Source of the DNA: a virus
Lineage: Duplodnaviria; Heunggongvirae; Uroviricota; Caudoviricetes
Reading direction: 5' to 3' (one strand)
Length of the DNA: 33,490 bases
Virus record (IMG/VR): IMGVR_UViG_2667527975_000008
The notes beneath the pieces were generated by a model. That model was not told the origin of the DNA. It saw nothing but the letters and a program-made list of their open reading frames with translations, and searched no databases. The position numbers were made by a program, and so were the translations under genes. Positions 8,295 to 29,166 of the stretch are shown piece by piece; position 1 is the first letter of the stretch, and every line of letters starts with the position of its first letter.

Positions 8295-8888
8295 CTATTT
8301 GTCCCGGTTGGCTAAGGGATGACACAATTTATTCTTTGTCGCTGATGAGGGGAATTTTTTATAGAGCGTGGACAGGCCAATATCAAAAATCAGCGCCACG
8401 CGTTGACGTGATTCACCCGCAGCCAGCAACCGTCCTGCCTGTTCCCACTCACTCGCGGTGAGCTTCGGACGTCTGCCACCAATACGACCTTTAGCTCTGG
8501 CCGCTTCCAGTCCGGCGCGTGTCCGCTCGACAATGAGTTCTCGTTCCATTTCAGCCAGGGCACCCATCACATGAAAGAAAAAACGCCCCATCGGCGTGCT
8601 GGTATCAATAGCATCCGTCAGGCTGCGAAAATTAACGCCGCGTTCGCGCAGTTCCTCAACCAGAATGACCAGATGCCGCATACTACGCCCCAGCCTGTCC
8701 AGCTTCCAGACCACCAGTGTATCCCCCTCCGATAATGTCCTGAGCAGTTTTTTCAGTCCCGGTCGGTCGGACTTAGTGCCGCTGATTTTATCCTCAAAAA
8801 TCAGCTCACATCCTGCGCACTCCAGCGCGTTACGCTGCAATTCCGTGTTCTGGTCATTTGTTGACACGCGTACATAGCCAATAAGCAT
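8295..8888 (-). CDS. Serine recombinase / DNA invertase (Gin/Cin/Pin/Hin family) for tail-fibre switching
   Basis: Product MLIGYVRVSTNDQNTELQRNAL...VVWKLDRLGRSM...MGRFFFHVMGALAEMERELI...GGRRPKL with C-terminal HTH; the catalytic Ser motif and near-identity to Gin over the N-terminal 140 aa are recognisable by eye. Start taken at the second Met; the track ORF starts 6 nt upstream (8894). Confidence 0.9.
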   Translation of the reverse strand: MLIGYVRVSTNDQNTELQRNALECAGCELIFEDKISGTKSDRPGLKKLLRTLSEGDTLVVWKLDRLGRSMRHLVILVEELRERGVNFRSLTDAIDTSTPMGRFFFHVMGALAEMERELIVERTRAGLEAARAKGRIGGRRPKLTASEWEQAGRLLAAGESRQRVALIFDIGLSTLYKKFPSSATKNKLCHPLANRDK

Positions 8889-8943
8889 GAGCATCCCCCT
8901 GAATAAAAACCGGAGATGATGCCAGTTGCCCGTTATCTCTGCA

Positions 8944-8969
8944 TTTTCATAAACGTTGGTTTGGGAGAA
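8944..8969. repeat. Invertase crossover site, left (gix/cix-like 26 bp)
   Basis: ttttcataaacgttggtttgggagaa; reverse complement TTCTCCCAAACC-AA-CGTTTATGAAAA. The half-site TTCTCCCAAACC is shared, in inverted orientation, with the site at 10830..10855. Confidence 0.75.
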
Positions 8970-9308
8970 GCGGCTAAAAGGAATGTAGGGACAGGGGCGA
9001 ATCAGATACCTGATATGGGTAGCTTCACGCTTTCTGTTTCAGGTACTGGATATCAAAAATTACCATCAGGTTTTATTCTTCAGTGGGGCTCAATCGGCGC
9101 ACCAGGCATTGCACAGGATGTAGTAACCCATTTCCCGATTGCATTTCCAAACAGATGTCTGCGTGTTTTGGTCTCACAAGACTACACACCAGATAGCGGG
9201 GCTGTTGGTTATATTGCCTGTGCAGGTTTTAGTCCCGACCCGGTTAAATTTATATCCAGAGCCAGTACTCCTGGCCTCGGCGCTTCATTTTTAGCGTTAG
9301 GCTGTTAA
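8970..9308 (+). CDS. Alternative tail-fibre C-terminal segment (Hv'), silent in this orientation; no own start codon
   Basis: Open frame runs through the left crossover site (..FINVGLGE|[12 protein letters not shown]...). It would fuse to the constant part of H (..LAYLGLGE) after inversion. The track's N-terminal Met at 8916 is an ORF-caller artefact. Confidence 0.65.
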
Positions 9309-9329
9309 TTTAGCTATATGGAGTGAAAA

Positions 9330-9770
9330 ATGAATTACATATATTCCGCGACTACAAACTCTTTCTATCCGCTGGAGATGAAAGAGGATTACACTCAAGC
9401 TGACTCATGGCCAGATGATGCTGTTGAAGTTGATGAGCAAGTGTATATTGAGTTTTCCGGATTACCGCCGAAAGGAAAAATCCGTATCGCTGGAGAAAAT
9501 GGTTTTCCTGCATGGTCTGAAATTCCACCACCAACACATGAGGAACAAATTGCTGCAGCCGAATTGGAGAAGCAGCAATTGATTAATCAGGCCAACGATT
9601 ATATGAACAGTAAACAATGGCCTGGTAAAGCGGCTATTGGTCGTCTGAAAGGTGACGAACTGGCGCAATATAATTTGTGGCTGGATTACCTGGACGCACT
9701 GGAACTGGTCGATACTTCCGGTGCGCCAGATATTGAATGGCCTACGCCTCCGGCAGTTCAGGCCAGATGA
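9330..9770 (+). CDS. Tail fibre assembly protein, alternative copy (tfa', paired with Hv')
   Basis: 146-aa ORF with the conserved N-terminal Tfa region (YIYSATTNSFYP...); converges on and overlaps the 3' end of the opposing tfa. Confidence 0.8.
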   Translation: MNYIYSATTNSFYPLEMKEDYTQADSWPDDAVEVDEQVYIEFSGLPPKGKIRIAGENGFPAWSEIPPPTHEEQIAAAELEKQQLINQANDYMNSKQWPGKAAIGRLKGDELAQYNLWLDYLDALELVDTSGAPDIEWPTPPAVQAR

Positions 9771-10344
9771 CATCCGGCGCGGTGCTGGTATCTGTTGCCG
9801 TCACCGCGTCAATGTAATCCAGCACAGCGTTAAGCCGGGTTGTTTCTGCCTGCGTCAGTTTACGTCCGGCCTGCAATTTCAGTTGAATCAGACTGATGGA
9901 AGCCATTGCAGTATCAATCAGCGACTGGCGCTGTGCTTCTGCTGCATCTACTGCGGCGCTATGCTGTGCCTCAGTATCGGTCACCCATTTCTCACCATCC
10001 CATTTATCGTATGGCGTTAATGGGGCGATAGTGGTTGTATTTTCAGGGTAATCACCCGGAGCGGTGATTTCTTTTGATTCTCCTGTTTTGGTGCTATAGA
10101 CCGTTTCACCGCGATGGTCTGGCACATATTCCCATGAGTTAAAATCTGCAGAACGGCAGATTGCATAACCAGCCTTATGTGTGCCAGGGGCATCTAAACA
10201 GGAACATGCCGGAATGCCGACACCAACGGCAAGATATTCATTTGAAGTGGAAATATATTCCCGTGTTTCACCATCATAGTTATAAACGGTAATATCCCCT
10301 GCCTTTGTTGCAATGAGCTCACTATTTAATATTGCTTTATGCAT
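9742..10344 (-). CDS. G: Tail fibre assembly protein (G-like), in the expressed orientation
   Basis: 200-aa ORF directly downstream of H with stop/start overlap; the C-terminal region resembles that of tfa' (..TSTAPDVIWPELP vs ..TSGAPDIEWPTPP). Confidence 0.8.
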   Translation of the reverse strand: MHKAILNSELIATKAGDITVYNYDGETREYISTSNEYLAVGVGIPACSCLDAPGTHKAGYAICRSADFNSWEYVPDHRGETVYSTKTGESKEITAPGDYPENTTTIAPLTPYDKWDGEKWVTDTEAQHSAAVDAAEAQRQSLIDTAMASISLIQLKLQAGRKLTQAETTRLNAVLDYIDAVTATDTSTAPDVIWPELPEA

Positions 10345-11669
10345 CAGGCTGCCCTCACGATATAGTTAAATGCAATATTACGCGGACGCGTTTCTGAGGC
10401 TGCGGCACCTAAACCAGCCACTGATTGTTTATATGTTTTAAAGGTTCCATAATCCGGTGCTGGTAATCCGGCATCGTTTGTGTTTCCTCTTTTGATAATG
10501 TCAGTGCCACTATTTACCCAGCTTTCATCAAAATAGAAATTAATCGTTGCATCAGTCACAATCGTGGATCTTGACGGTAATCCATGAGCATGATCCTCCG
10601 TTGCATACCCCTGAATACTTAAAATAGAGCGACCTGTATCAATCCCCCGCCCGTCATCCCAGCCACGAATAAACTCACCACGTAAATCAGGCAATTTATT
10701 TGTCGGGTAAACTTTTGCCAGTTCCGGGTATTCTTCAGCAGAAAAAGCTGCACCATTGCATTTCAGCCAGCCTGTTGGCGGAGTGGCTGAAGGCCACGGA
10801 ACAGGGACACCAACAGGTAATGCAGAGCCTTCTCCCAAACCAAGGTATGCGAGAAGACCGGCAACATCCTTTCCACTCAAATGAGTCAGCGTCTCATCCA
10901 GTGGCTGCTTACCTGACAGCGCATTGTTAATGGTGGTACTGAATTTCGGGTCATTGTTAATGGCTGCGGCAATTTCTTTCAGTGTGTCCAGCGTGGCTGG
11001 CGCACCGTTAATCAGAGCGGTAATAGCGGCCTGAACAAACTCAGTGGTCGCAATCCGCGTGGTGTTATTTCCTGCGGCAGGCGTCGGCGCTTTTGGTTCT
11101 CCGGTAAATGTCGGATTATGTTTCTGTGCATACTGGGTATGAGGATCCTGTGCGGCAATGTGGTTTCTCATCTGGTCATCCACATACAGCCTTAATTCCA
11201 GGACTTCATCATCCACGTATTTACGGGTCGCCAGTACCACCGACGGGTCGATTTTCAGCGTAATAGCTTCGGTATTCGTGACAACCAGAATCATGCGGAT
11301 AGTCTGGGTACGACCACTGCCTTCCTGCAACTGCGGTTTGTACGTTTCCGGGCAGTTCGCCACCGCAATGAGTACGCCTTCATCATCATAAAGCCCAATC
11401 TCACGGATCCAGAATCCGCCCTCGTTCTCAGGGATGATTTGCTCCGCAATAATCTGGCTCTGGTTGTTCGGGTCAACACTCAGAAGATTCAGCGGCGCGA
11501 TGCGTTTCTGGTTAATCAGTTTTGTCTGTGCCGGGTCTGGTGTCGGCAAGACACCATTCGCATCACCAACGGCCATTTGCGTCAGATTCAGCTTACTGCC
11601 GAGCATCGTCGCGTTAGCCAGCCGTGCTGCGCCCTGATTAGTCAGAATGGCGTAGTATTTCACTGTCAT
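10344..11669 (-). CDS. H: Tail fibre protein H (constant N-terminus plus invertible C-terminus)
   Basis: 441-aa ORF with the P2 gpH-like N-terminus (MTVKYYAILTNQGAARLANA...); the crossover site lies inside it at about codon 271. Confidence 0.9.
   Translation of the reverse strand: MTVKYYAILTNQGAARLANATMLGSKLNLTQMAVGDANGVLPTPDPAQTKLINQKRIAPLNLLSVDPNNQSQIIAEQIIPENEGGFWIREIGLYDDEGVLIAVANCPETYKPQLQEGSGRTQTIRMILVVTNTEAITLKIDPSVVLATRKYVDDEVLELRLYVDDQMRNHIAAQDPHTQYAQKHNPTFTGEPKAPTPAAGNNTTRIATTEFVQAAITALINGAPATLDTLKEIAAAINNDPKFSTTINNALSGKQPLDETLTHLSGKDVAGLLAYLGLGEGSALPVGVPVPWPSATPPTGWLKCNGAAFSAEEYPELAKVYPTNKLPDLRGEFIRGWDDGRGIDTGRSILSIQGYATEDHAHGLPSRSTIVTDATINFYFDESWVNSGTDIIKRGNTNDAGLPAPDYGTFKTYKQSVAGLGAAASETRPRNIAFNYIVRAA
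10830..10855. repeat. Invertase crossover site, right (inside gene H)
   Basis: ttctcccaaaccaaggtatgcgagaa, inverted relative to the left site; encodes LAYLGLGE in H. Confidence 0.75.
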
Positions 11670-13182: not shown

Positions 13183-13530
13183 TCAACTCACAGGGATGGT
13201 TAACGAAAGTGGCTGGCCGGTGTCGTTGTGCTGACCGGTTAACGTGACCGTCATTCGCCCGTCAAAACTGCGCGCCGTGGTGACGGATGACAGGGTGACG
13301 CGGGGTTCCCATTTCAGCACGGCCATGTAACAGGCGACCTTAATCTGCAACTCAAGCGCCGGGGTCTGCGGCTGGTCAATCATTGACGCCAGCAACGAGC
13401 CGTAATCACGACGCATCACCCGTGAGCCGACCGGTGTGCGCAGGATATCGCCGATACTCTGGCTGATATGCTCAAGGTCAGTGACAGTCAGGCCATCACT
13501 GCGATTCATTCCGAGATAACGCGCTGTCAT
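13183..13530 (-). CDS. W: Baseplate protein W (gp25-like)
   Basis: 115-aa ORF in the gpW position. Confidence 0.9.
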   Translation of the reverse strand: MTARYLGMNRSDGLTVTDLEHISQSIGDILRTPVGSRVMRRDYGSLLASMIDQPQTPALELQIKVACYMAVLKWEPRVTLSSVTTARSFDGRMTVTLTGQHNDTGQPLSLTIPVS

Positions 13531-14162
13531 AGAGGACTCCCGGTTTTGCCGCCGCTGTCGCCGGGGTGTTTATGGGTATGCAGTACTTTACCGTTTGATG
13601 AAAGTTCACCGCCGGTGTGTTCAATGTTGCCGCGCATCGTCCCGCCCTTCTGCACTTCCAGCGTGCCGGTAATCAGCCTGTTGGTGCAGACCACCTCCGG
13701 TGTGTCCAGGGTGACGCGGGTTGATGCTTTCACCATGACCACCGGTACCGTGGCAGTAACAGAATCAGAAGCCGTCACGCTGGCCGTTTTAATTCCGCTT
13801 ACCGTGAGTGCACTGGTTTCAGGTTCATACTCAATCACCGCCCCGTCAGGGAAACGGATATGCAGGGCATCCGCCGACGCCGACGGCGCGGGGTTATCGC
13901 CGGAATAAATCCCCGGCAGAACGAACGCAGTGTCGAGTTCACCGCCCACGGCCAGAATCAGCACCTGTTCCCCCACGGAAGGTGCCCACCATGTGCGCGA
14001 ACGTCCGGCGCGATGGGTCAGCCACTGAAGCCAGTCGGTGCACATGCCGCCGGTTTGCACACGGCAGCGACCGGCGTTAAGGTCGGTTTCGACGATAATG
14101 CCGGTGCGGATCATGTTGCGCAGTGCGCGCGCGAGTTCCTGAATATTTGCGAGAGTGTTCAT
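13527..14162 (-). CDS. V: Baseplate spike protein V
   Basis: Product beginning MNTLANIQELARALRNM...; start set at the ATG at 14162, because the track ORF begins at an upstream TTG (14198). Confidence 0.85.
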   Translation of the reverse strand: MNTLANIQELARALRNMIRTGIIVETDLNAGRCRVQTGGMCTDWLQWLTHRAGRSRTWWAPSVGEQVLILAVGGELDTAFVLPGIYSGDNPAPSASADALHIRFPDGAVIEYEPETSALTVSGIKTASVTASDSVTATVPVVMVKASTRVTLDTPEVVCTNRLITGTLEVQKGGTMRGNIEHTGGELSSNGKVLHTHKHPGDSGGKTGSPL

Positions 14163-14239
14163 AACGGGAAGGATGCCGCTGGACGATACCAGCAGCAATC
14201 ATGGAGGGTTCTGTCAGCTGTGACACAACATAACAAATA

Positions 14240-14995
14240 TTAGTTGTAGCACTTCTCTATAATCTTCATACACTCCTCATGAGCTAAATCATGGCTGTCA
14301 AATTCTTTATTAAAAAAGAAGAAAAACGCCTTCTTAACCTGAGGAATTTCAATAAAAACAAATTCATCAACCTTATGAAAGAAATGAAAACTCTTGTTTG
14401 ATGTTTCAAAAACCATCAAAGAATTATGTTTTTTATCCTTCCATTTCGACATCAGATTGCGTCGCGATTTTCGTATAATCCTGAAGACATCCCCCGGCGT
14501 CGTATCGACATTCCCCCAAAACATTGCAACCGGGAAGTTTGCAAGAAACGGGATATAATCACCACCTTTATACCTGAGAAAGCGGTTCCGCAAATCCATT
14601 AATTGCAACTTAAAACCCATGTATTGCAACCACCATATGATGCAATCATACTCATAATCTGTTAACTCCTCCCCTCTCTTTTCCGTAAGAAATTTCTTCA
14701 GGTTATACTCAAACACTCCCAGCAAATCAGAATTGCACACTCTGCATGCTGGTACAGTGGCTTTAATGTAATGAGTTGACTGATTATTCTTTTTATTAAT
14801 TAAAGATTTTTCAGCATTTGACTCAAAGGCCCACTGAGGAATAATGTGCTCACGAGTAATATCGTCAGAACTCCCGCATAACACACATATATCAGCATTA
14901 TGGTCAGCAATAATACAATCCATAACTTTCTTTTGAGAATGCTTTACTCTTTTTCTCAAAATGGAAAACTTTTTATCCACAAACACCCGTCTCAT
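14240..14995 (-). CDS. HNH-motif nuclease-like cargo protein inserted between S and V (homing endonuclease or defence nuclease)
   Basis: 251-aa ORF, visibly AT-rich (about one-third GC in hand-counted 60-mers). Contains C-x2-C ... E-H-I-I-P ... N ... C-x2-C-N (CVLCGSSDDITREHIIPQW...CRVCNSD), the beta-beta-alpha-Me/HNH signature. Start overlaps the S stop by 4 nt (ATGA). Confidence 0.6.
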   Translation of the reverse strand: MRRVFVDKKFSILRKRVKHSQKKVMDCIIADHNADICVLCGSSDDITREHIIPQWAFESNAEKSLINKKNNQSTHYIKATVPACRVCNSDLLGVFEYNLKKFLTEKRGEELTDYEYDCIIWWLQYMGFKLQLMDLRNRFLRYKGGDYIPFLANFPVAMFWGNVDTTPGDVFRIIRKSRRNLMSKWKDKKHNSLMVFETSNKSFHFFHKVDEFVFIEIPQVKKAFFFFFNKEFDSHDLAHEECMKIIEKCYN

Positions 14996-15450
14996 ATAAC
15001 ATCTTTCGATAGAATCACTAATAACTCCCTTTCTATCAATTGTATAGATTCCTTGTCAAAACCAAATAACTCACGAACAGGATATTCCACCACAGCACTA
15101 TTACGCCCCGGCTTATCCCTAAGCCCTAATTGATGTACTCGCGCAATTCGTTGTACTCCGCTGGCAAACGCCACCACCGCCGCACTCTCGCTACCTGTTG
15201 CTTTCATAAACCGGTTAGTGCGTAATTTCACAAACATTTCCCGCTTTATCCGGCCTTTCTTATTTCGTACTGGTTGGTTTTTTCTCGGTACATACGGCGT
15301 ACCATCCGGGGCTTTTTGTAATTTAATTCGCTGCTGCTGGCGCTGGCGCAGCTTCTTCGCAATATCTACCGCCAGTCGCCGACGCCCTGACGGTGACAGC
15401 GACTCAATCAGTCCGGTCAGCCGGTCTTCAAAACGCTTAAACTCATTCAT
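14992..15450 (-). CDS. S: Tail completion protein S
   Basis: 152-aa ORF in the gpS position downstream of R. Confidence 0.85.
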   Translation of the reverse strand: MNEFKRFEDRLTGLIESLSPSGRRRLAVDIAKKLRQRQQQRIKLQKAPDGTPYVPRKNQPVRNKKGRIKREMFVKLRTNRFMKATGSESAAVVAFASGVQRIARVHQLGLRDKPGRNSAVVEYPVRELFGFDKESIQLIERELLVILSKDVI

Positions 15451-15910
15451 CCCACTTGCTCACCAGTTCACCATTGATATAAAGCTCCATCGGGCGGGTG
15501 ACCGGCTCCGGCGGCGTGGGTTCCGGGATATTCTTCACATGCAGTGCGCCGTCCACCTCACTGACCAGCGTGCGCTCGGTCAGCATCAGGCTGATGCTGA
15601 TATCAAAGCTGCTGTCATTGTTGATGTCTGCATAAAACGTGAAGCCCTTTTTCTGGCCTTCGTCGGTGGTCATGATGTCGGGCTGATTTTCCCGCAGCCA
15701 CGCCAGCACCGGCACAATGAGCAGGTCAAAATCACCGGTAAAGTCGGTCACAATCACATTGAGCGTGTAACGCTTTTCGAATGACAGCGACGTCGCCAGT
15801 GTGGAGGCAATACTCCCGTTATCCACGAATATCCGCAGCATCTCTGGACTGGTTTTCAGCACCGTGACGGCATCAGTCAGCGCCCTGCGCAGGCTGTCGG
15901 GTTTGAGCAT
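15443..15910 (-). CDS. R: Tail completion protein R
   Basis: 155-aa ORF in the gpR position. Confidence 0.9.
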   Translation of the reverse strand: MLKPDSLRRALTDAVTVLKTSPEMLRIFVDNGSIASTLATSLSFEKRYTLNVIVTDFTGDFDLLIVPVLAWLRENQPDIMTTDEGQKKGFTFYADINNDSSFDISISLMLTERTLVSEVDGALHVKNIPEPTPPEPVTRPMELYINGELVSKWDE

Positions 15911-24360: not shown

Positions 24361-24597
24361 CGCCCGCTTCATGGGGCGGTTTTAATGCAGTTGCATAGAT
24401 ACTATGGATGCGCACCAGCTCTGACCGCAAGCAACCGAAACTGGCATCCCCGACGCATGCAAAAACATTCACTTGTTGCATGCACGGCTTATTTAATGAC
24501 AAATCAACTTAAATTTACGAAGTCTACAGGCATGGATTCTTTGCTAACATGATAGGCTTACGAGAATTATCGAGCCTATTTTTCACCGGAGCAATGT

Positions 24598-25539
24598 ATG
24601 CAAGGTAAAGTTGACGAACCGCAACCAAATGAGATTATTTCGGAGTTTGGATACTATCCAGTAGAAGTTAACATTGAGACTGAACAATTTTCTTTGCGTA
24701 CTTTACCCAATCTCATTGAGAAAGTGGAACATGTTAACAATGATAAAAACGTTGTTAATGGTTGGATATACCCTGGAAATAAAAAGGTATATAATCTCAA
24801 TGGTGGTATATCCACAATGCCTTATAGTCACCGAGTATTCGGCATGCCCAAAACACACACACTAAAATTAAAAAATACATCCTCGTTAGAAACTCTCAAC
24901 TTTGTTGTGTGGTGTCTATCTTTTTTCAAGGGTATAAGATTGACAACCACTGACGCTGGTTTTCTTGATGCAACCACTATCAAGCCCACTAAGTTAACCG
25001 ACTTTATTCTCGTTGGATGCTCTGAAAAAGAAGTAATAGAGCTCGCACTTAACTATATAAAAGAAAAACAAAAAGATGAACGTTCCATTAAAAGAATAGC
25101 TGCGGTGATACATTCCCTATTCCTGTCACATAACCCACTATACCTTTCCTTTGAGAAATTCCAGTATCTTTATATGGCTCTTGATTGCTGTTTTGCTATA
25201 GCATGGGACGAAAGGGATAAAGTCATTAAAAAGAAAAAACCATCTCATCAAAATAGAGTATATTGGATGTGCGAAAATTACGGTATAAAAATCCCGTCAT
25301 GGGCAACAGATGAATGTAATGTTTCAGTTATACGCAATGATAATTTTCATGAAGCCATTTTTAATGGGCAACCGCTTGGTTTTTCTAGTATCAACGATTG
25401 TCAACATGGTAGCGATATATTGCTACAAATGCAGGCTCTGGTGTGTCGTTTACTAGCGGCAATACTCTCTGTAAATGATCGTAAATATATCGCATCTACA
25501 ATCAACTCGATAGAGTACCGTTCATTAAAATTAACTTAA
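24598..25539 (+). CDS. Hypothetical cargo protein in the tin/old-position hotspot; possible HEPN-like RNase motif
   Basis: 313-aa AT-rich ORF with an SD (ggag) upstream; no family recognised. Contains R-N-D-N-F-H (residues about 246-251; nt 25333..25350), which fits the R-[N]-x3-H pattern of HEPN domains. Confidence 0.5.
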   Translation: MQGKVDEPQPNEIISEFGYYPVEVNIETEQFSLRTLPNLIEKVEHVNNDKNVVNGWIYPGNKKVYNLNGGISTMPYSHRVFGMPKTHTLKLKNTSSLETLNFVVWCLSFFKGIRLTTTDAGFLDATTIKPTKLTDFILVGCSEKEVIELALNYIKEKQKDERSIKRIAAVIHSLFLSHNPLYLSFEKFQYLYMALDCCFAIAWDERDKVIKKKKPSHQNRVYWMCENYGIKIPSWATDECNVSVIRNDNFHEAIFNGQPLGFSSINDCQHGSDILLQMQALVCRLLAAILSVNDRKYIASTINSIEYRSLKLT

Positions 25540-25569
25540 TGCTAACGCCTCACTTCGTTCGTTGTTCAA

Positions 25570-25608
25570 CCCCGCCAGCACTGAAAACATGTTTCATTGC
25601 TGGCGGGG
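25570..25608. terminator. 39-bp imperfect palindrome; probable bidirectional terminator between convergent cargo transcription units
   Basis: ccccgccagca...tgctggcgggg arms (11 bp) around an internally palindromic loop (aacatgtt). Confidence 0.45.
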
Positions 25609-25612
25609 TTCT

Positions 25613-25765
25613 CTATCGTCTGCGTGGTGGCGGCGCAAGGCTGGACTGACCGATATAGTTAAGCTGTTCGTAATTATCCCTGACTATTTCGGCACACCCG
25701 ACTAGCTCATCGGGCGTCAGATTTTCGTTGACCATAATCTGCTGTAAACGGTGAACAATGGCCAT
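25613..25765 (-). CDS. Possible small ORF (50 aa) in a GC-normal stretch inside the hotspot
   Basis: ATG..TAG frame MAIVHRLQQIMVNENLTPDELVGCAEIVRDNYEQLNYIGQSSLAPPPRRR, below the 60-aa track cutoff; weak SD; its composition differs from the flanking AT-rich genes. Confidence 0.25.
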   Translation of the reverse strand: MAIVHRLQQIMVNENLTPDELVGCAEIVRDNYEQLNYIGQSSLAPPPRRR

Positions 25766-25859
25766 CAACCTGACACTTTTGGTGTTATATGTGGTATCTC
25801 ACATGAGATTACTGACCAAGGTGCATCTTGGTTGACTCATTTCATATCCATCCACACCA

Positions 25860-26540
25860 CTACATCTTTATTGCATATTTATTAAAAGACGCCCAGTTCA
25901 ACAAAAAAACATTATTCATATACCATTCAATATAATTTTTATTTTTAGATTGACTGTCAAGTAGCACACAAACATCAACCTGTTTATCAATCAATTTTGA
26001 AATATAAACCACAAACTCAACACTCGAATATCTCTTTGTGCCTAGCAAATATAATATTTCATCTGACAAATAATTAGACTCATGTGAAAAGACATTATCA
26101 TTTAACAAAATCAATCCGCCAATCGAGTCATTTAAATCCAAAACATCCTTTGTTGCATTTATTTGCTTATTAGCTTCCTTAACTACCTTTGTTTTAATAT
26201 TTTCATAAGCAAAGTTTATTATATCATTTCTAAATCGCTTTGAGTCTGGGTGTCTTTTTATCAACTCTTCTAAATGAATAGCACCATGCCAGTTTTTTGC
26301 AAGCCAACTATCTGTTTTAACCAACTCATTCAGTTTATCATTGACATTCTTGACCCTGTCAGAAAAAAGACTTTTCATCTCCAAAATTATCTTTTTATTA
26401 TCAATAAGATAATCTGCCATCTTGCGATTCTGACCATCCTTCATCCGGAACTTATGATGAATATCATCAATAGAAATCCCTTTTTCATGCTCAACAATGA
26501 ATCTCTTAATATTGTTTTCTAATTCGCTGTATTGTTTCAT
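25860..26540 (-). CDS. Hypothetical cargo protein (226 aa), downstream partner of the small DUF2158-like gene
   Basis: Very AT-rich ORF, Lys/Asn-rich; no motif recognised; lies 27 nt downstream of the preceding small ORF on the same strand. Confidence 0.5.
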   Translation of the reverse strand: MKQYSELENNIKRFIVEHEKGISIDDIHHKFRMKDGQNRKMADYLIDNKKIILEMKSLFSDRVKNVNDKLNELVKTDSWLAKNWHGAIHLEELIKRHPDSKRFRNDIINFAYENIKTKVVKEANKQINATKDVLDLNDSIGGLILLNDNVFSHESNYLSDEILYLLGTKRYSSVEFVVYISKLIDKQVDVCVLLDSQSKNKNYIEWYMNNVFLLNWASFNKYAIKM

Positions 26541-26567
26541 ACTTTCCCCCGTGAATTTTATTGTGAT

Positions 26568-26762
26568 TCACTTACGTGGACGACACAGCATACCACTTTT
26601 ACTCTCTGCTATTTCCAGTAAATCAATGGAGAATGACTCCTCGTGCAAAACTCCTTCTTTATCATGCCAAATACATTTAGCATGAGTCTCAGTAGAGTCA
26701 GATACAGTCATTTTAAATCCACCGCTTTTCAAACAAACAACATCTGCAGGCTTTAACATTTT
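26568..26762 (-). CDS. Small protein, DUF2158/YodC-like (about 64 aa)
   Basis: MLKPADVVCLKSGGFKMTVSD... resembles the N-terminal pattern of YodC-family small proteins; GGAG lies 6 nt upstream of this ATG. The track ORF (to 26843) is probably over-extended. Confidence 0.45.
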   Translation of the reverse strand, partial: KMLKPADVVCLKSGGFKMTVSDSTETHAKCIWHDKEGVLHEESFSIDLLEIAESKSGMLCRPRK

Positions 26763-26886
26763 TGTCTCCAACATTTTTAAGTAATGCATTATAACATAAT
26801 GATATTGACGTAGATTTAATGCATGCAACCATATAAAAAACAATCAATTACAGTCAAAACTGCTTAATACTGTATAGATGAGATCA

Positions 26887-29166
26887 TTACTCAAATTGAT
26901 GCCAAAATCCCGGCCACTCATCAGCGACCGGATACGTGAATTTTTTCCCGTCATAATTTACGGTCGCGCCACGCGCCAGCGCCTCAAGCTCCCATCGCTG
27001 CGGCCTGATACCGTTCTGAGCAAGGTCAACGCGGATACGGGTGATTTGCAATCGTTCAGACCGGCTCAGTCTGGCCGATGGTGCAATTTCATACGGTTTT
27101 AACGGGCTTCCATTTCTTTGCTGACGGTTTGGTCTTCTCAGGCCGTGTTTTAATGCGCCCCTGAGCGCCCTCACGACCTCCGGGTCATTCCATTCGATAA
27201 CACCGTCATCAACCAGATTAAGCACTGCTGCGGCGTGCTCAGAAGGCGTGGAAGCCGGTAACGAAGTATCACCACCAGTAAGCTTTCCACAGTTATTGAC
27301 AGGACTCCGAGGCGCGGCGATGCCGCTTTTTAAAGTCAAAGGCTCAACGACCGGAACTTTCGGAACAATGCGCCAGTCCGTCGTTCTGGTGATATGAATA
27401 TGACGCGCGCCGAGATGCGGCGCGTAAATGCCGACCACTCTCTCGACTTCTTCCTCGTACTCGTTAACTTCATCCGACGGGCTACGGGCAACCCTGACAG
27501 TCTGACAATCGCGCGGGACATTTGCCCCACCCTGCGCGCTGATATACAACGCAAAATCACCACTGTCTGCGGCGGCGCGTGCAGCCTCGACGCGTTCGTC
27601 AAACTCATCAGCAATGCTGACGCCGCGAGGCAATTTGCGTAGTTCACGGTAAGCGCCCATTGTCGGCAGGCCAACCGTTTTAAATTGCGGGATACGCCAC
27701 GTTGACGCCCATGCGGTAACAGCCGCTGCAGTGTCTTTCAGCGGCCTGCCGGTATCGTTATCGAGCTGACCATCCAGTGCATAGCCGTCGATGTTTTTTG
27801 AGATGTATTTCGCGATATACCCCGCAGCACCGCCCCGGTTAAGGTGTTTTGCCTGAAAACGGTTTCGCGCAGCTCCTCTTTCGTCGCCATCCTCTTTGAG
27901 TGCGTAGCGACGCATGATTTCGATAATCTGGTTACGCTGGCGCGGATTACAAAAAAGCATCATATGCCAGTGCGGCGTTCCGTCGTGGTGTGGCTCGACG
28001 ACACGCAAACCGTAGACCTGTAAATCATTATCCTTGAATGCCGTGCGCATCAGGCTCCAGATATGGCAGAGATAACGCTGCGCATCCTTTGGATTAAATG
28101 CCTCATCGTTCCAGCCGTGATTTAGCTGGACGGTTTTACTTTCGCCTTTTCCGACCTGACGTGTCGGGTGATACTTTGACGGCGCGGTCAGCGTGATAAA
28201 CATCCCCACATCACCCTCTGCTGCGGCGTAACGCTCAATACCGGCAATGGTGTTCATCAGCTCCATCCGGCGAATTTCAGGATTAGAAATACTGCCCATC
28301 ACCTTACTGATAAGGTCGATGCGCTCGCCGGTTTCCCTGTTTTCAAGGTCACACGATTTAAGAAATTCCAGATTTGCCTGGCGGCGTGCACGTACATCAC
28401 GAATGGCATGTTTACTGGCATAAGGAGAACGGTCTTTATTCACCTCCCCGACAGCAATCAGTAACGCCTCATGCCAGCGCATACGCTGGCCTTTAAGCTG
28501 ATGAGTCCACCACTCATCGTTAAACAGACGGGCAATGGCAGAATATGCCTGCCTCGTGGTCATCTGTCCTTTACGGTATTTTTTCCAGTAGAGAGGGGAA
28601 ATATTGAAAGCTCGTGCAGCGCCAGCAACATGACCATACAGGTGATCCTGAGCCTCATCCGTAAACAGTGATTCTTTTTCGCCATGCGCATCCACCCAGG
28701 CATCGCTGAGTTCCTCATACATCATGAAAAGCTGCGATGAGATACGGGCGGCAAACTTTTTCAGCTCCTTGTCATTCATTCCCGGCAGGCGCGCATAGTG
28801 GTCACGCTCTGCCAGAAACAGCAACGACGCGTCGGTGTTCATTTCATGGCGCTGATTCACACGCTCAATGCGCGGCCATAAACGACGCTGAAAAGTGGAT
28901 GTGAGGAAATAAAACCCGTGCACCGGGCTTTTATTGCGCCGGATGTAGTCATAGCGTGAAGTAAACAGCGAGCGCAAAAAGTAAGGCAGGCGGTTAATCG
29001 TGGATAAAACACCTTGCACCTGACGCATCTCGTCACGTGTAAGGGGTCTTTCGCGCCCGACGGCCTCGCGTGGCGCGTTCCATGCATAAGCACCGGTAAA
29101 CGTCTTACCGGTGCCTGCGGCAAATGCTGACGGAGGGACAAAACGCCCGGAGGCTTTAACGACCAT
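26887..29166 (-). CDS. A: Replication initiation protein A (rolling-circle nickase)
   Basis: Product from MVVKASGRFVPPSAFAAGTGK...; large ORF downstream of B/orf80-83. Confidence 0.9.
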   Translation of the reverse strand: MVVKASGRFVPPSAFAAGTGKTFTGAYAWNAPREAVGRERPLTRDEMRQVQGVLSTINRLPYFLRSLFTSRYDYIRRNKSPVHGFYFLTSTFQRRLWPRIERVNQRHEMNTDASLLFLAERDHYARLPGMNDKELKKFAARISSQLFMMYEELSDAWVDAHGEKESLFTDEAQDHLYGHVAGAARAFNISPLYWKKYRKGQMTTRQAYSAIARLFNDEWWTHQLKGQRMRWHEALLIAVGEVNKDRSPYASKHAIRDVRARRQANLEFLKSCDLENRETGERIDLISKVMGSISNPEIRRMELMNTIAGIERYAAAEGDVGMFITLTAPSKYHPTRQVGKGESKTVQLNHGWNDEAFNPKDAQRYLCHIWSLMRTAFKDNDLQVYGLRVVEPHHDGTPHWHMMLFCNPRQRNQIIEIMRRYALKEDGDERGAARNRFQAKHLNRGGAAGYIAKYISKNIDGYALDGQLDNDTGRPLKDTAAAVTAWASTWRIPQFKTVGLPTMGAYRELRKLPRGVSIADEFDERVEAARAAADSGDFALYISAQGGANVPRDCQTVRVARSPSDEVNEYEEEVERVVGIYAPHLGARHIHITRTTDWRIVPKVPVVEPLTLKSGIAAPRSPVNNCGKLTGGDTSLPASTPSEHAAAVLNLVDDGVIEWNDPEVVRALRGALKHGLRRPNRQQRNGSPLKPYEIAPSARLSRSERLQITRIRVDLAQNGIRPQRWELEALARGATVNYDGKKFTYPVADEWPGFWHQFE

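Follow-up and report, generated by a model that had tools for sequence, protein, structure and literature searches.

An HNH_5-like gene between S and V of a P2-like prophage: a candidate single-protein nuclease exchanged among phages, integrons and recombinase islands

Introduction

What is the product of an AT-rich gene for, when it stands between the tail genes S and V of a P2-like prophage and most of the relatives of that prophage do without it? The question arises in a viral stretch of 33,490 nucleotides (IMG/VR record IMGVR_UViG_2667527975_000008, here called the window), which is a P2-like prophage (Peduovirus) whose late genes run on the minus strand. The open reading frame (ORF) in question occupies 14240–14995 on that strand. 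An earlier note on this DNA had read it as an HNH nuclease gene and had offered two explanations, a free-standing homing endonuclease or a nuclease of defence or superinfection exclusion. We assign a probability of roughly 0.5 to the reading that the product is a self-sufficient, single-protein nuclease for conflict between mobile elements (defence or exclusion), with its timing and target left aside. That reading is drawn from sequence comparison and predicted structure.

The ORF and its place are already known from phage R18C, whose ORF16 (YP_009883387.1) is 98% identical, lies at the same place between S and V and belongs to the same mosaic block; nothing substantive differs between the two. 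In the description of R18C this "hypothetical protein", which replaces orf30, is a rare moron of unknown function for which PSI-BLAST gave no clue (PMC6823313). A search of the literature found no publication characterising this protein family. New here are the HNH_5-like assignment, the unmatched C-terminal domain, the mosaic that the gene forms with S, its strict linkage in the order R-S-[gene]-V-W and its connection with integron cassettes and recombinase islands.

Results

A predicted HNH_5-like core is joined to an unmatched C-terminal domain

The ORF is a real gene. Its frame is free of stops for 251 codons in the ORF listing, and the chance of an open frame of that length is about 2e-8 by our own estimate, which takes about 6.8% stop codons at such composition. 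GC content is 0.36–0.39 over 14201–15000 and 0.57–0.61 in both flanks, so that the earlier description of an uninterrupted, AT-rich frame of 251 amino acids (aa) holds. The protein has a full-length match to a PHROG profile of unknown function (phrog_10503).

The ATG of the ORF overlaps the stop of S in an ATGA (14995–14992), from which the earlier note had proposed translational coupling. The overlap is there, as is the upstream ATG, in 19 of 19 copies from the E. coli clade; neither is kept in other clades, where the homologues start MDKKF... and have 245–247 aa. The R18C record and RefSeq/PGAP annotate the gene as 741 bp, starting five codons further in. The window codon that matches the MDKKF start is a GTG at 14980, 11 nt past the S stop. 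This GTG, which gives 246 aa, is probably the family-wide start; judged from the alignments, the upstream ATG at 14995 is a trait of the E. coli clade and not a feature of the family, although it is not to be dismissed.

The window protein carries the motif C37-VL-C40, E49-H50-IIP, N70 and C84-RV-C87-N88. All eight of these residues (C37, C40, E49, H50, N70, C84, C87 and N88) are invariant in alignments of 21, 17 and 57 sequences, and the invariance spans relatives from E. coli to Bacteroidota and Vibrio. The HNH signature CxxC...EHIIP...N...CxxCN noticed in the earlier note is thus present and invariant across the family, including the His and Asn that the note had singled out as catalytic. 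The two CxxC pairs are a zinc-site feature of the His-Me finger. In the full-length AlphaFold2 model (predicted local distance difference test, pLDDT, 78.8; predicted template modelling score, pTM, 0.82), two N-terminal helices are followed by a strand (residues 46–50), a long loop, a second strand (80–84) and a helix (85–105), with the inter-strand loop of ~30 residues modelled at low confidence. E49-H50 closes strand 1, N70 falls within the loop and CxxCN, with N88, opens helix 85–105, and the predicted topology of the N-terminal part is that of a beta-beta-alpha-metal fold.

Pfam HNH_5 (PF14279) is among the closest described families. The published classification places it in His-Me finger groups 1 and 8, and the T4 Mob homing enzymes share a His-Me group with it (PMC5714182). 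Family members share with these groups the pattern CxxC...EH(I/V)(I/L)P...N...CxxCN and the predicted fold; they differ from HNH_5 in scores below the gathering cut-off (16–26.9 vs 27.5 bits), in the ~30-residue loop and in a fused C-terminal domain of 150 aa without relatives. The window protein itself scores 16.2 bits over profile positions 1–21, eight of ten remote relatives have sub-threshold matches, and the best score, 26.9 bits over positions 1–55 of 56, comes from two marine members. Precomputed tables flag PF14279.13 in 14 of 120 listed cluster representatives, and those that were re-scanned scored below the cut-off. The protein is HNH_5-like in that it has the defining residues and the predicted fold and misses the curated threshold. 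Its conserved residues point to a predicted nuclease activity.

Modelled alone, the C-terminal domain is predicted with confidence (pLDDT 81.4, pTM 0.75): long helices are combined with an antiparallel sheet of four strands, and a further helix closes the chain. The WL, FHFFH and AFF..F motifs are invariant in it, and residues 167–190 form a basic helix. The earlier note had recognised no motif in these last ~150 aa, and the domain search agrees, since no Pfam, NCBIfam, PDB-sequence or fold match was found for them. Scans of the protein against Pfam, NCBIfam and PADLOC returned only the sub-threshold HNH_5 match and an Endonuclease_1 match at noise level; phmmer and the family profile gave nothing meaningful against all PDB sequences, and Foldseek gave no match below E 0.1 against BFVD. 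No NUMOD, IENR1, helix-turn-helix or zinc-finger DNA-binding module was detected in the C-terminal part, and no structural match to I-HmuI-like enzymes was found, both of which count against a homing function.

Full-length relatives travel alone outside phages

Homologues with 37–41% identity to the window protein, and 45–85% among themselves, have the same length and both domains. Their hosts are Vibrio, Photobacterium, Shewanella, Alteromonas, Psychromonas, Halomonas, Leucothrix and Aeromonas, and further Bacteroidota, Desulfobacterales and one Gracilibacteria genome. None of these genes adjoins R, S, V or W; each stands alone between intergenic spacers, which again speaks against homing and also against a role confined to the phage life cycle.

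The clearest case is Alteromonas, where the gene stands in an array of small co-oriented ORFs beside an IntI-type tyrosine recombinase, with repeated elements of ~75–130 nt between the ORFs. In Alteromonas, Leucothrix and Halomonas (loci L134, L029 and L033), attC-like elements of 95–111 nt start at the stop codon of the homologue and end in GTTA; the elements (TAACAAAC...GGGCGTTA) have folding energies of -37 to -52 kcal/mol. These folded elements look like attC sites, and the Alteromonas gene qualifies as an integron cassette. Detection was structure-based, a strict R''/R' consensus having missed even clear Alteromonas cassettes, and other genera may be under-counted. By the simple structural test no attC-like element was seen in the Vibrio loci, and none lies beside the ORF in the window. 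Leucothrix pacifica (L029) and Alteromonas (L134) have an identical 95-nt attC-like element after the homologous cassette, which points to a recent transfer of the whole cassette between integrons. A survey of metagenomic integrons lists PF14279 among abundant cassette functions (PMC7370490), and integrons have been described as cassette biobanks that include anti-phage functions (PMC12614218).

Other contexts are more varied. The island that harbours the Vibrio alginolyticus homologue also encodes three tyrosine recombinases, a RecD2-like helicase, DUF3644 and DprA, and the Shewanella homologue adjoins a TacA/GNAT toxin-antitoxin pair and an insertion sequence element. In Aeromonas the gene occupies a fixed chromosomal islet, and in a Bacteroidota metagenome-assembled genome (MAG) its context is neutral. 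Among the nearest neighbours of 20 marine-type loci are three integrases, one Mrr-type restriction enzyme, methyltransferases, Mokosh components and PADLOC candidate systems; each defence family was seen in one protein, and no conserved partner was found among these neighbours. The GC content of the homologue is 0.32–0.38 in every context, with flanks from 0.34 to 0.63, and such constancy whatever the flanks is as expected for a gene from a mobile pool.

The slot between S and V is a cargo site at the boundary of two late operons

The late genes of the window follow the order R (15443–15910), S, the ORF, V, W and J in the ORF listing. V starts at an ATG at 14162 (211 aa, as in relatives), where the mechanical listing had a TTG at 14198. 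In the P2 record, a rho-independent terminator closes the O operon after S. Transcription of the V operon, which comprises V, W, J, I, H and G, is annotated as starting just before V, where an activator-binding site is also marked. A predicted activator (Ogr-type) site, TTGTGTCACAGCTGACA, starts 12 nt beyond the stop of the ORF. When the 100 nt before V are aligned, its TTGT half-site lies 66 nt ahead of the V ATG in eight of eight phages and prophages, the window included; in L-413C, where the slot is empty, the activator site begins 1 nt past the S stop. Because of the P2 annotations and the placement of the half-site, the ORF is assigned by homology to the boundary of two late transcription units, with the O operon ending ahead of it and the V-operon promoter following. 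This is the classical orf30 moron site, and the earlier wording that placed the gene inside the late tail operon is incorrect.

The S–V slot (orf30) is one of three moron regions of P2-like phages (PMC6823313), and defence systems have been reported within P2 tail genes (PMC13586616). The ORF shares the properties of P2 morons, in that its place is bounded by the S stop and the pV activator site and viable relatives lack it. The slot is empty in L-413C and 186, and most of 92 related phage records have the same empty 66-bp junction as L-413C. P2 and P2_AC1 carry there an unrelated 261-aa Orf30 on the opposite strand. P2 Orf30 (NP_046770.1) resembles the HNH-like gene as AT-rich, non-essential cargo of the slot before the pV activator site; it differs in lying in opposite orientation behind the annotated terminator, whereas the HNH-like gene is co-oriented with S and abuts it. 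Homology between the two was rejected (BLASTP E 0.47).

Further cargo is found in other relatives. E. coli 258E has a 414-aa ATPase that matches the PADLOC candidate PDC-S59 (L013, 1547–2791; E 2.8e-31), and Klebsiella phage ST147-VIM1phi7.1 has a 347-aa protein that is weakly LmuA-like (L011, 3279–4322; E 2e-6). A Peduoviridae-like IMG/VR contig (2767802269_000001, locus L124, 3983–5080, plus strand) encodes there a 365-aa protein remotely related to the HNH part (hhalign probability 95.9%). Because its gene is antisense to the late genes, the slot can take up HNH-type genes in either orientation.

In some loci another gene is interposed between the HNH-like gene and V (examples are L005, 6926–7582; L017, 4785–5828; L092, 4846–5664), and the products of these three are unrelated predicted membrane proteins. 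A fixed partner gene or two-gene system was rejected, as these second genes belong to three unrelated families and the neighbours of the marine homologues have no family in common.

The gene is rare among P2-like phages and strictly linked to R, S, V and W

A megablast search with 13400–15600 returned the 92 related phage records mentioned above, and only R18C has the insert. Of 5426 complete E. coli genomes, 1576 have matching flanks (a P2-like junction) and 77 hold the whole locus. The gene is absent from most relatives and so is not a universal structural gene, the possibility that the earlier note had named as an objection to its own reading.

Wider searches recovered relatives in larger number. 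A word-indexed search of 5.8 billion proteins gave 44, all unannotated and nearly all from Enterobacterales. A profile search of 1.84 billion cluster representatives gave 35 at E<1e-30, together with hundreds of proteins of 300–360 aa whose likeness is confined to the N-terminal ~100 residues. At least 282 homologous clusters came from a second indexed search with a mixed alignment, and 118 loci from scans of one genome per species and of IMG/VR. Truncated homologues (P0037, P0038 and L104) are a minority. In all of the ~50 loci whose homologue is at least 45% identical, which come from E. coli, Klebsiella, Kluyvera and metagenomic viral contigs, the order is R-S-[gene]-V-W on a single strand.

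Two loci assigned to distant hosts, a Sporobacter termitidis MAG (L016) and Chryseobacterium sp. 18061 (L017), have the enterobacterial-type R-S-[gene]-V-W arrangement with proteins 63–77% identical to those of the window; they are probably contamination or mis-binning in those assemblies.

The gene lies on a mosaic block with a foreign S allele

Compared with L-413C, sliding identity is 95–100% up to ~14185 and from ~15385 on and collapses between these points, and the intervening block diverges from both P2 and L-413C. Protein identity to P2 is 96.8% for R, 98.1% for V and 100% for W, and 54.6% for S. The first ~22 codons of S are of P2 type, the remainder is foreign and the 3' end is AT-rich; the closest S in sequenced phages besides R18C is 69% identical. 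The ORF was thus imported by homologous recombination on a block of ~1.2 kb, together with most of a foreign S and the upstream part of the pV region. The earlier note had proposed a comparison of S–V junctions to delimit the insertion. The gene is indeed missing from most relatives; the foreign segment is larger than the ORF itself and has no flanking repeats. No direct or inverted repeats were found in 13900–15700, and a transposon-like or site-specific insertion was rejected on the absence of repeats around the insert.

The S-side boundary of the block is identical in 18 of 19 copies of the E. coli clade, the copy in L073 having another, with reshuffling of the R and V markers on either side. 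E. coli 258E combines a different cargo gene with a related non-P2 S allele. Because this unrelated cargo is also linked to a non-P2 S, the mosaicism of S is a property of the slot and not of the HNH-like gene.

The gene is under purifying selection and is probably read with S

In the E. coli clade the ratio of nonsynonymous to synonymous polymorphism (pN/pS) is 0.18 for the ORF vs 0.26 for S and 0.21 for V at the same loci, and the ORF is intact in 19 of 19 copies. The gene is under purifying selection as strong as that on its essential neighbours. When 39 distinct P2-context loci are compared pairwise, the identity of the protein tracks that of R, S, V and W (r 0.82–0.91, much of it between-clade structure); on average it is 0.70, the same as for R, S and W.

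No terminator or sigma-70 promoter above shuffled expectation was found in the window between S and the ORF or in the last 200 nt of S. A dedicated promoter or terminator around the ORF was rejected, nothing having been seen in the window and nothing being conserved over 18 loci. The gap from S to the ORF is -4 to ~32 nt in all ~50 loci, and the ORF is always co-oriented with S. The simplest reading of this arrangement would be cotranscription with S from the late O promoter.

Feature coordinates and other regions of the prophage

Table 1. Features at the S–V locus, in coordinates of the window
Feature	Coordinates	Strand	Basis or remark
Accessory ORF, HNH_5-like (His-Me finger) protein	14240..14995	-	251 aa from ATG at 14995; TAA stop 14242-14240
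Predicted beta-beta-alpha-metal (HNH) core, residues ~37-95	14711..14887	-	AlphaFold2 model, sub-threshold HNH_5 matches
Predicted C-terminal alpha/beta domain, residues ~96-251, unmatched fold	14243..14710	-	Separate domain model, conserved motifs
Gene S, tail completion / virion morphogenesis, foreign allele	14992..15450	-	PHROG profiles, identity comparisons
Gene V, baseplate spike/assembly, first V-operon gene, P2-type allele	13527..14162	-	PHROG profile, comparisons
Intergenic region with predicted V-operon late promoter	14163..14239	-	Homology to site annotated in P2 record
Mosaic block: most of S, HNH-like ORF, upstream part of pV region	14185..15385		Sliding identity to L-413C

An Rfam scan of the window found no element in the ORF region; its sole match is a full-length CyaR/RyeE small RNA gene at 1445–1530 on the plus strand (RF00112, 94.6 bits), which adjoins the prophage end at ~1546 and is preceded by a 453-aa ORF (1–1362). 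Similarity to the prophage of ABWA45, the closest relative found, starts at 1546. The ABWA45 prophage sits elsewhere, next to pflB, and this different chromosomal site implies that the window prophage uses another attachment site, next to cyaR.

The cos-proximal (old/tin) hotspot at 24390–26905 has a GC content of 0.30–0.40 and is wholly different from that of ABWA45, which holds an AAA ATPase and an S8 peptidase. In the window it holds a 313-aa ORF (24598–25539, plus strand) and a 226-aa ORF (25860–26540, minus strand), neither with a Pfam or PADLOC match. A further low-GC region at 9000–10600 (8297–10345 by offset from the ABWA45 annotation) corresponds to a recombinase-family gene in the 98.6%-identical ABWA45 prophage. 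There a gp53-like fragment and two tail-fibre assembly genes in opposed orientation come after the recombinase gene, an invertible tail-fibre layout as read from the ABWA45 annotation.

Discussion

The reading that we favour is that of a nuclease used in conflicts between mobile elements. The ORF would be horizontally exchanged cargo, a moron, in the variable slot between S and the V-operon promoter. Its N-terminal zinc-stabilised, HNH_5-like His-Me finger would cut, and the C-terminal domain would most probably select or sense the substrate. The enzyme would cleave the DNA of a competing phage, a satellite or another invader, to the benefit of both the prophage and its host. The protein would probably be made with the late proteins in lytic growth, read straight on from S, and any expression in the lysogen would need an unrecognised promoter.

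This reading is suggested by the fact that the same ~250-aa architecture travels solitary in integron arrays, tyrosine-recombinase islands and small variable islets. It is supported further because such contexts are cargo-exchange platforms tied to defence in the literature (P2/P4 hotspots, P2 tail genes and integrons; PMC9122126, PMC13586616, PMC12614218), because the slot also holds PDC-S59-like and weakly LmuA-like genes, and because no partner is needed. The gene resembles the single-gene anti-phage systems (P2 old, tin and fun, the PDC-S candidates and integron cassettes) as a compact, partnerless, AT-rich gene for a predicted nuclease domain in defence-bearing platforms. It differs from them in that its protein is unmatched in PADLOC v2 and the gene has no evident promoter of its own in P2-like phages.

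Several observations weigh against a conflict nuclease. No member tested reaches the HNH_5 gathering score. In PADLOC-DB v2.0.0 the window protein finds only noise (E 0.03), nine of ten relatives have no match and the remaining one has E 0.0086. The Aeromonas and Bacteroidota contexts show no obvious link to defence. The gene co-diverges with the structural genes at no faster rate than theirs, unlike typical fast-turnover hotspot cargo. Weak promoter-like matches lie upstream in 4 of 18 diverse loci and none is conserved, in a consensus scan that is blind to non-canonical promoters; the co-orientation and short gap to S point to late lytic expression, which would be ill-suited to a gene that protects the lysogen.

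A more specific form of the conflict reading would take up this late timing. The protein would then be a late lytic nuclease of offence or exclusion whose C-terminal domain recognises rival genomes, a one-protein module with a new sensor fold that is traded among hotspots, integrons and islands. Candidate rivals would be helper-hijacking P4-type satellites, co-resident or co-infecting P2-like phages and phages with modified DNA. Taken as a whole, we hold this fuller version to be unlikely.

Of the explanations outside the conflict reading, a free-standing HNH homing endonuclease survives best, although we judge it improbable. Such an enzyme would cut the gene-less S–V region late, and repair would copy the gene together with a resistant S allele by co-conversion. 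The sporadic occurrence of the gene among near-identical phages (2 of the 92 records, 77 of the 1576 E. coli genomes with a matching junction), its AT-richness and its constant intergenic site and orientation in ~50 loci are what would be expected of a homing gene. So are its probable late co-expression with S, the placement of HNH_5 in the His-Me group of the T4 Mob enzymes and the link to an S allele that diverges strongly and lies on a mosaic tract of 1.2 kb, with at least two S-side boundaries, in an otherwise P2-identical backbone. In being intergenic, patchy, AT-rich, probably late and linked to a divergent flank, the gene thus resembles T4 MobA-E and enzymes of the I-HmuI type. It differs from them in the lack of homing DNA-binding modules, in its integron and island homologues with spacers of their own and in a pattern of stable selection. 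A pN/pS as low as that of essential neighbours and the absence of decay in 19 copies do not suit a homing gene, nor does co-divergence with R, S, V and W, which indicates long vertical residence. With 18 of the 19 copies sharing one S-side boundary, repeated independent conversion is not evident, and the unrelated cargo of 258E is also linked to a non-P2 S. Of the two alternatives in the earlier note, homing is accordingly the less likely, and defence or exclusion fits the contexts better.

A second alternative, which we consider less probable than homing, is a nuclease that serves the P2-like phage itself late in its life cycle, by degrading host or competitor DNA, stimulating recombination or aiding DNA processing. 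P1 Ref, which stimulates recombination, offers a parallel. No terminator or conserved promoter precedes the gene, which would be the last of the late O operon; it diverges together with R, S and W at an equal rate and is under strong purifying selection, and R18C, which carries it, is a viable plaque former (PMC6823313), all of which would suit such a role. Packaging-associated HNH genes typically adjoin terminase or portal genes, as in HK97-type systems, and this gene is beside neither; moreover, its homologues occur in non-phage contexts. The great majority of P2-like phages, including P2, 186 and L-413C, lack the gene and grow without it.

Least probable of all, and a special case of the conflict reading, is a modification-dependent (type IV-like) restriction enzyme whose C-terminal domain reads modified bases while the HNH part cuts, in parallel to the exclusion of T-even phages, with their hypermodified DNA, by P2 tin: a nuclease that is everywhere solitary, with no methyltransferase, immunity or antitoxin partner, would have to spare self DNA by an intrinsic rule, and an HNH joined to a second conserved domain recalls the layout of McrA (a name that a database gives to member P0284), but the domain order is reversed relative to McrA, the C-terminal domain has no sequence or fold likeness to SRA, PUA/EVE, YTH or other known readers, and the difficulty over expression is that of any lysogen-protecting function.

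Should the protein prove to be an active nuclease and to confer a phenotype, it would be a very compact addition (~250 aa, one gene, no partner) to the weapons of temperate phages and integrons. The fixed place of the gene at the tail of a late operon raises the question whether defence-like cargo of a prophage may be used in lytic growth against competitors rather than in the lysogen. The family spans P2 hotspots, sedentary integrons and recombinase islands, three platforms on which cargo is exchanged, and is thereby a useful marker for the movement of such genes. For the P2-like phages themselves, the S–V slot swaps its cargo along with most of S, which makes S unsuitable as a vertical or phylogenetic marker for these phages.

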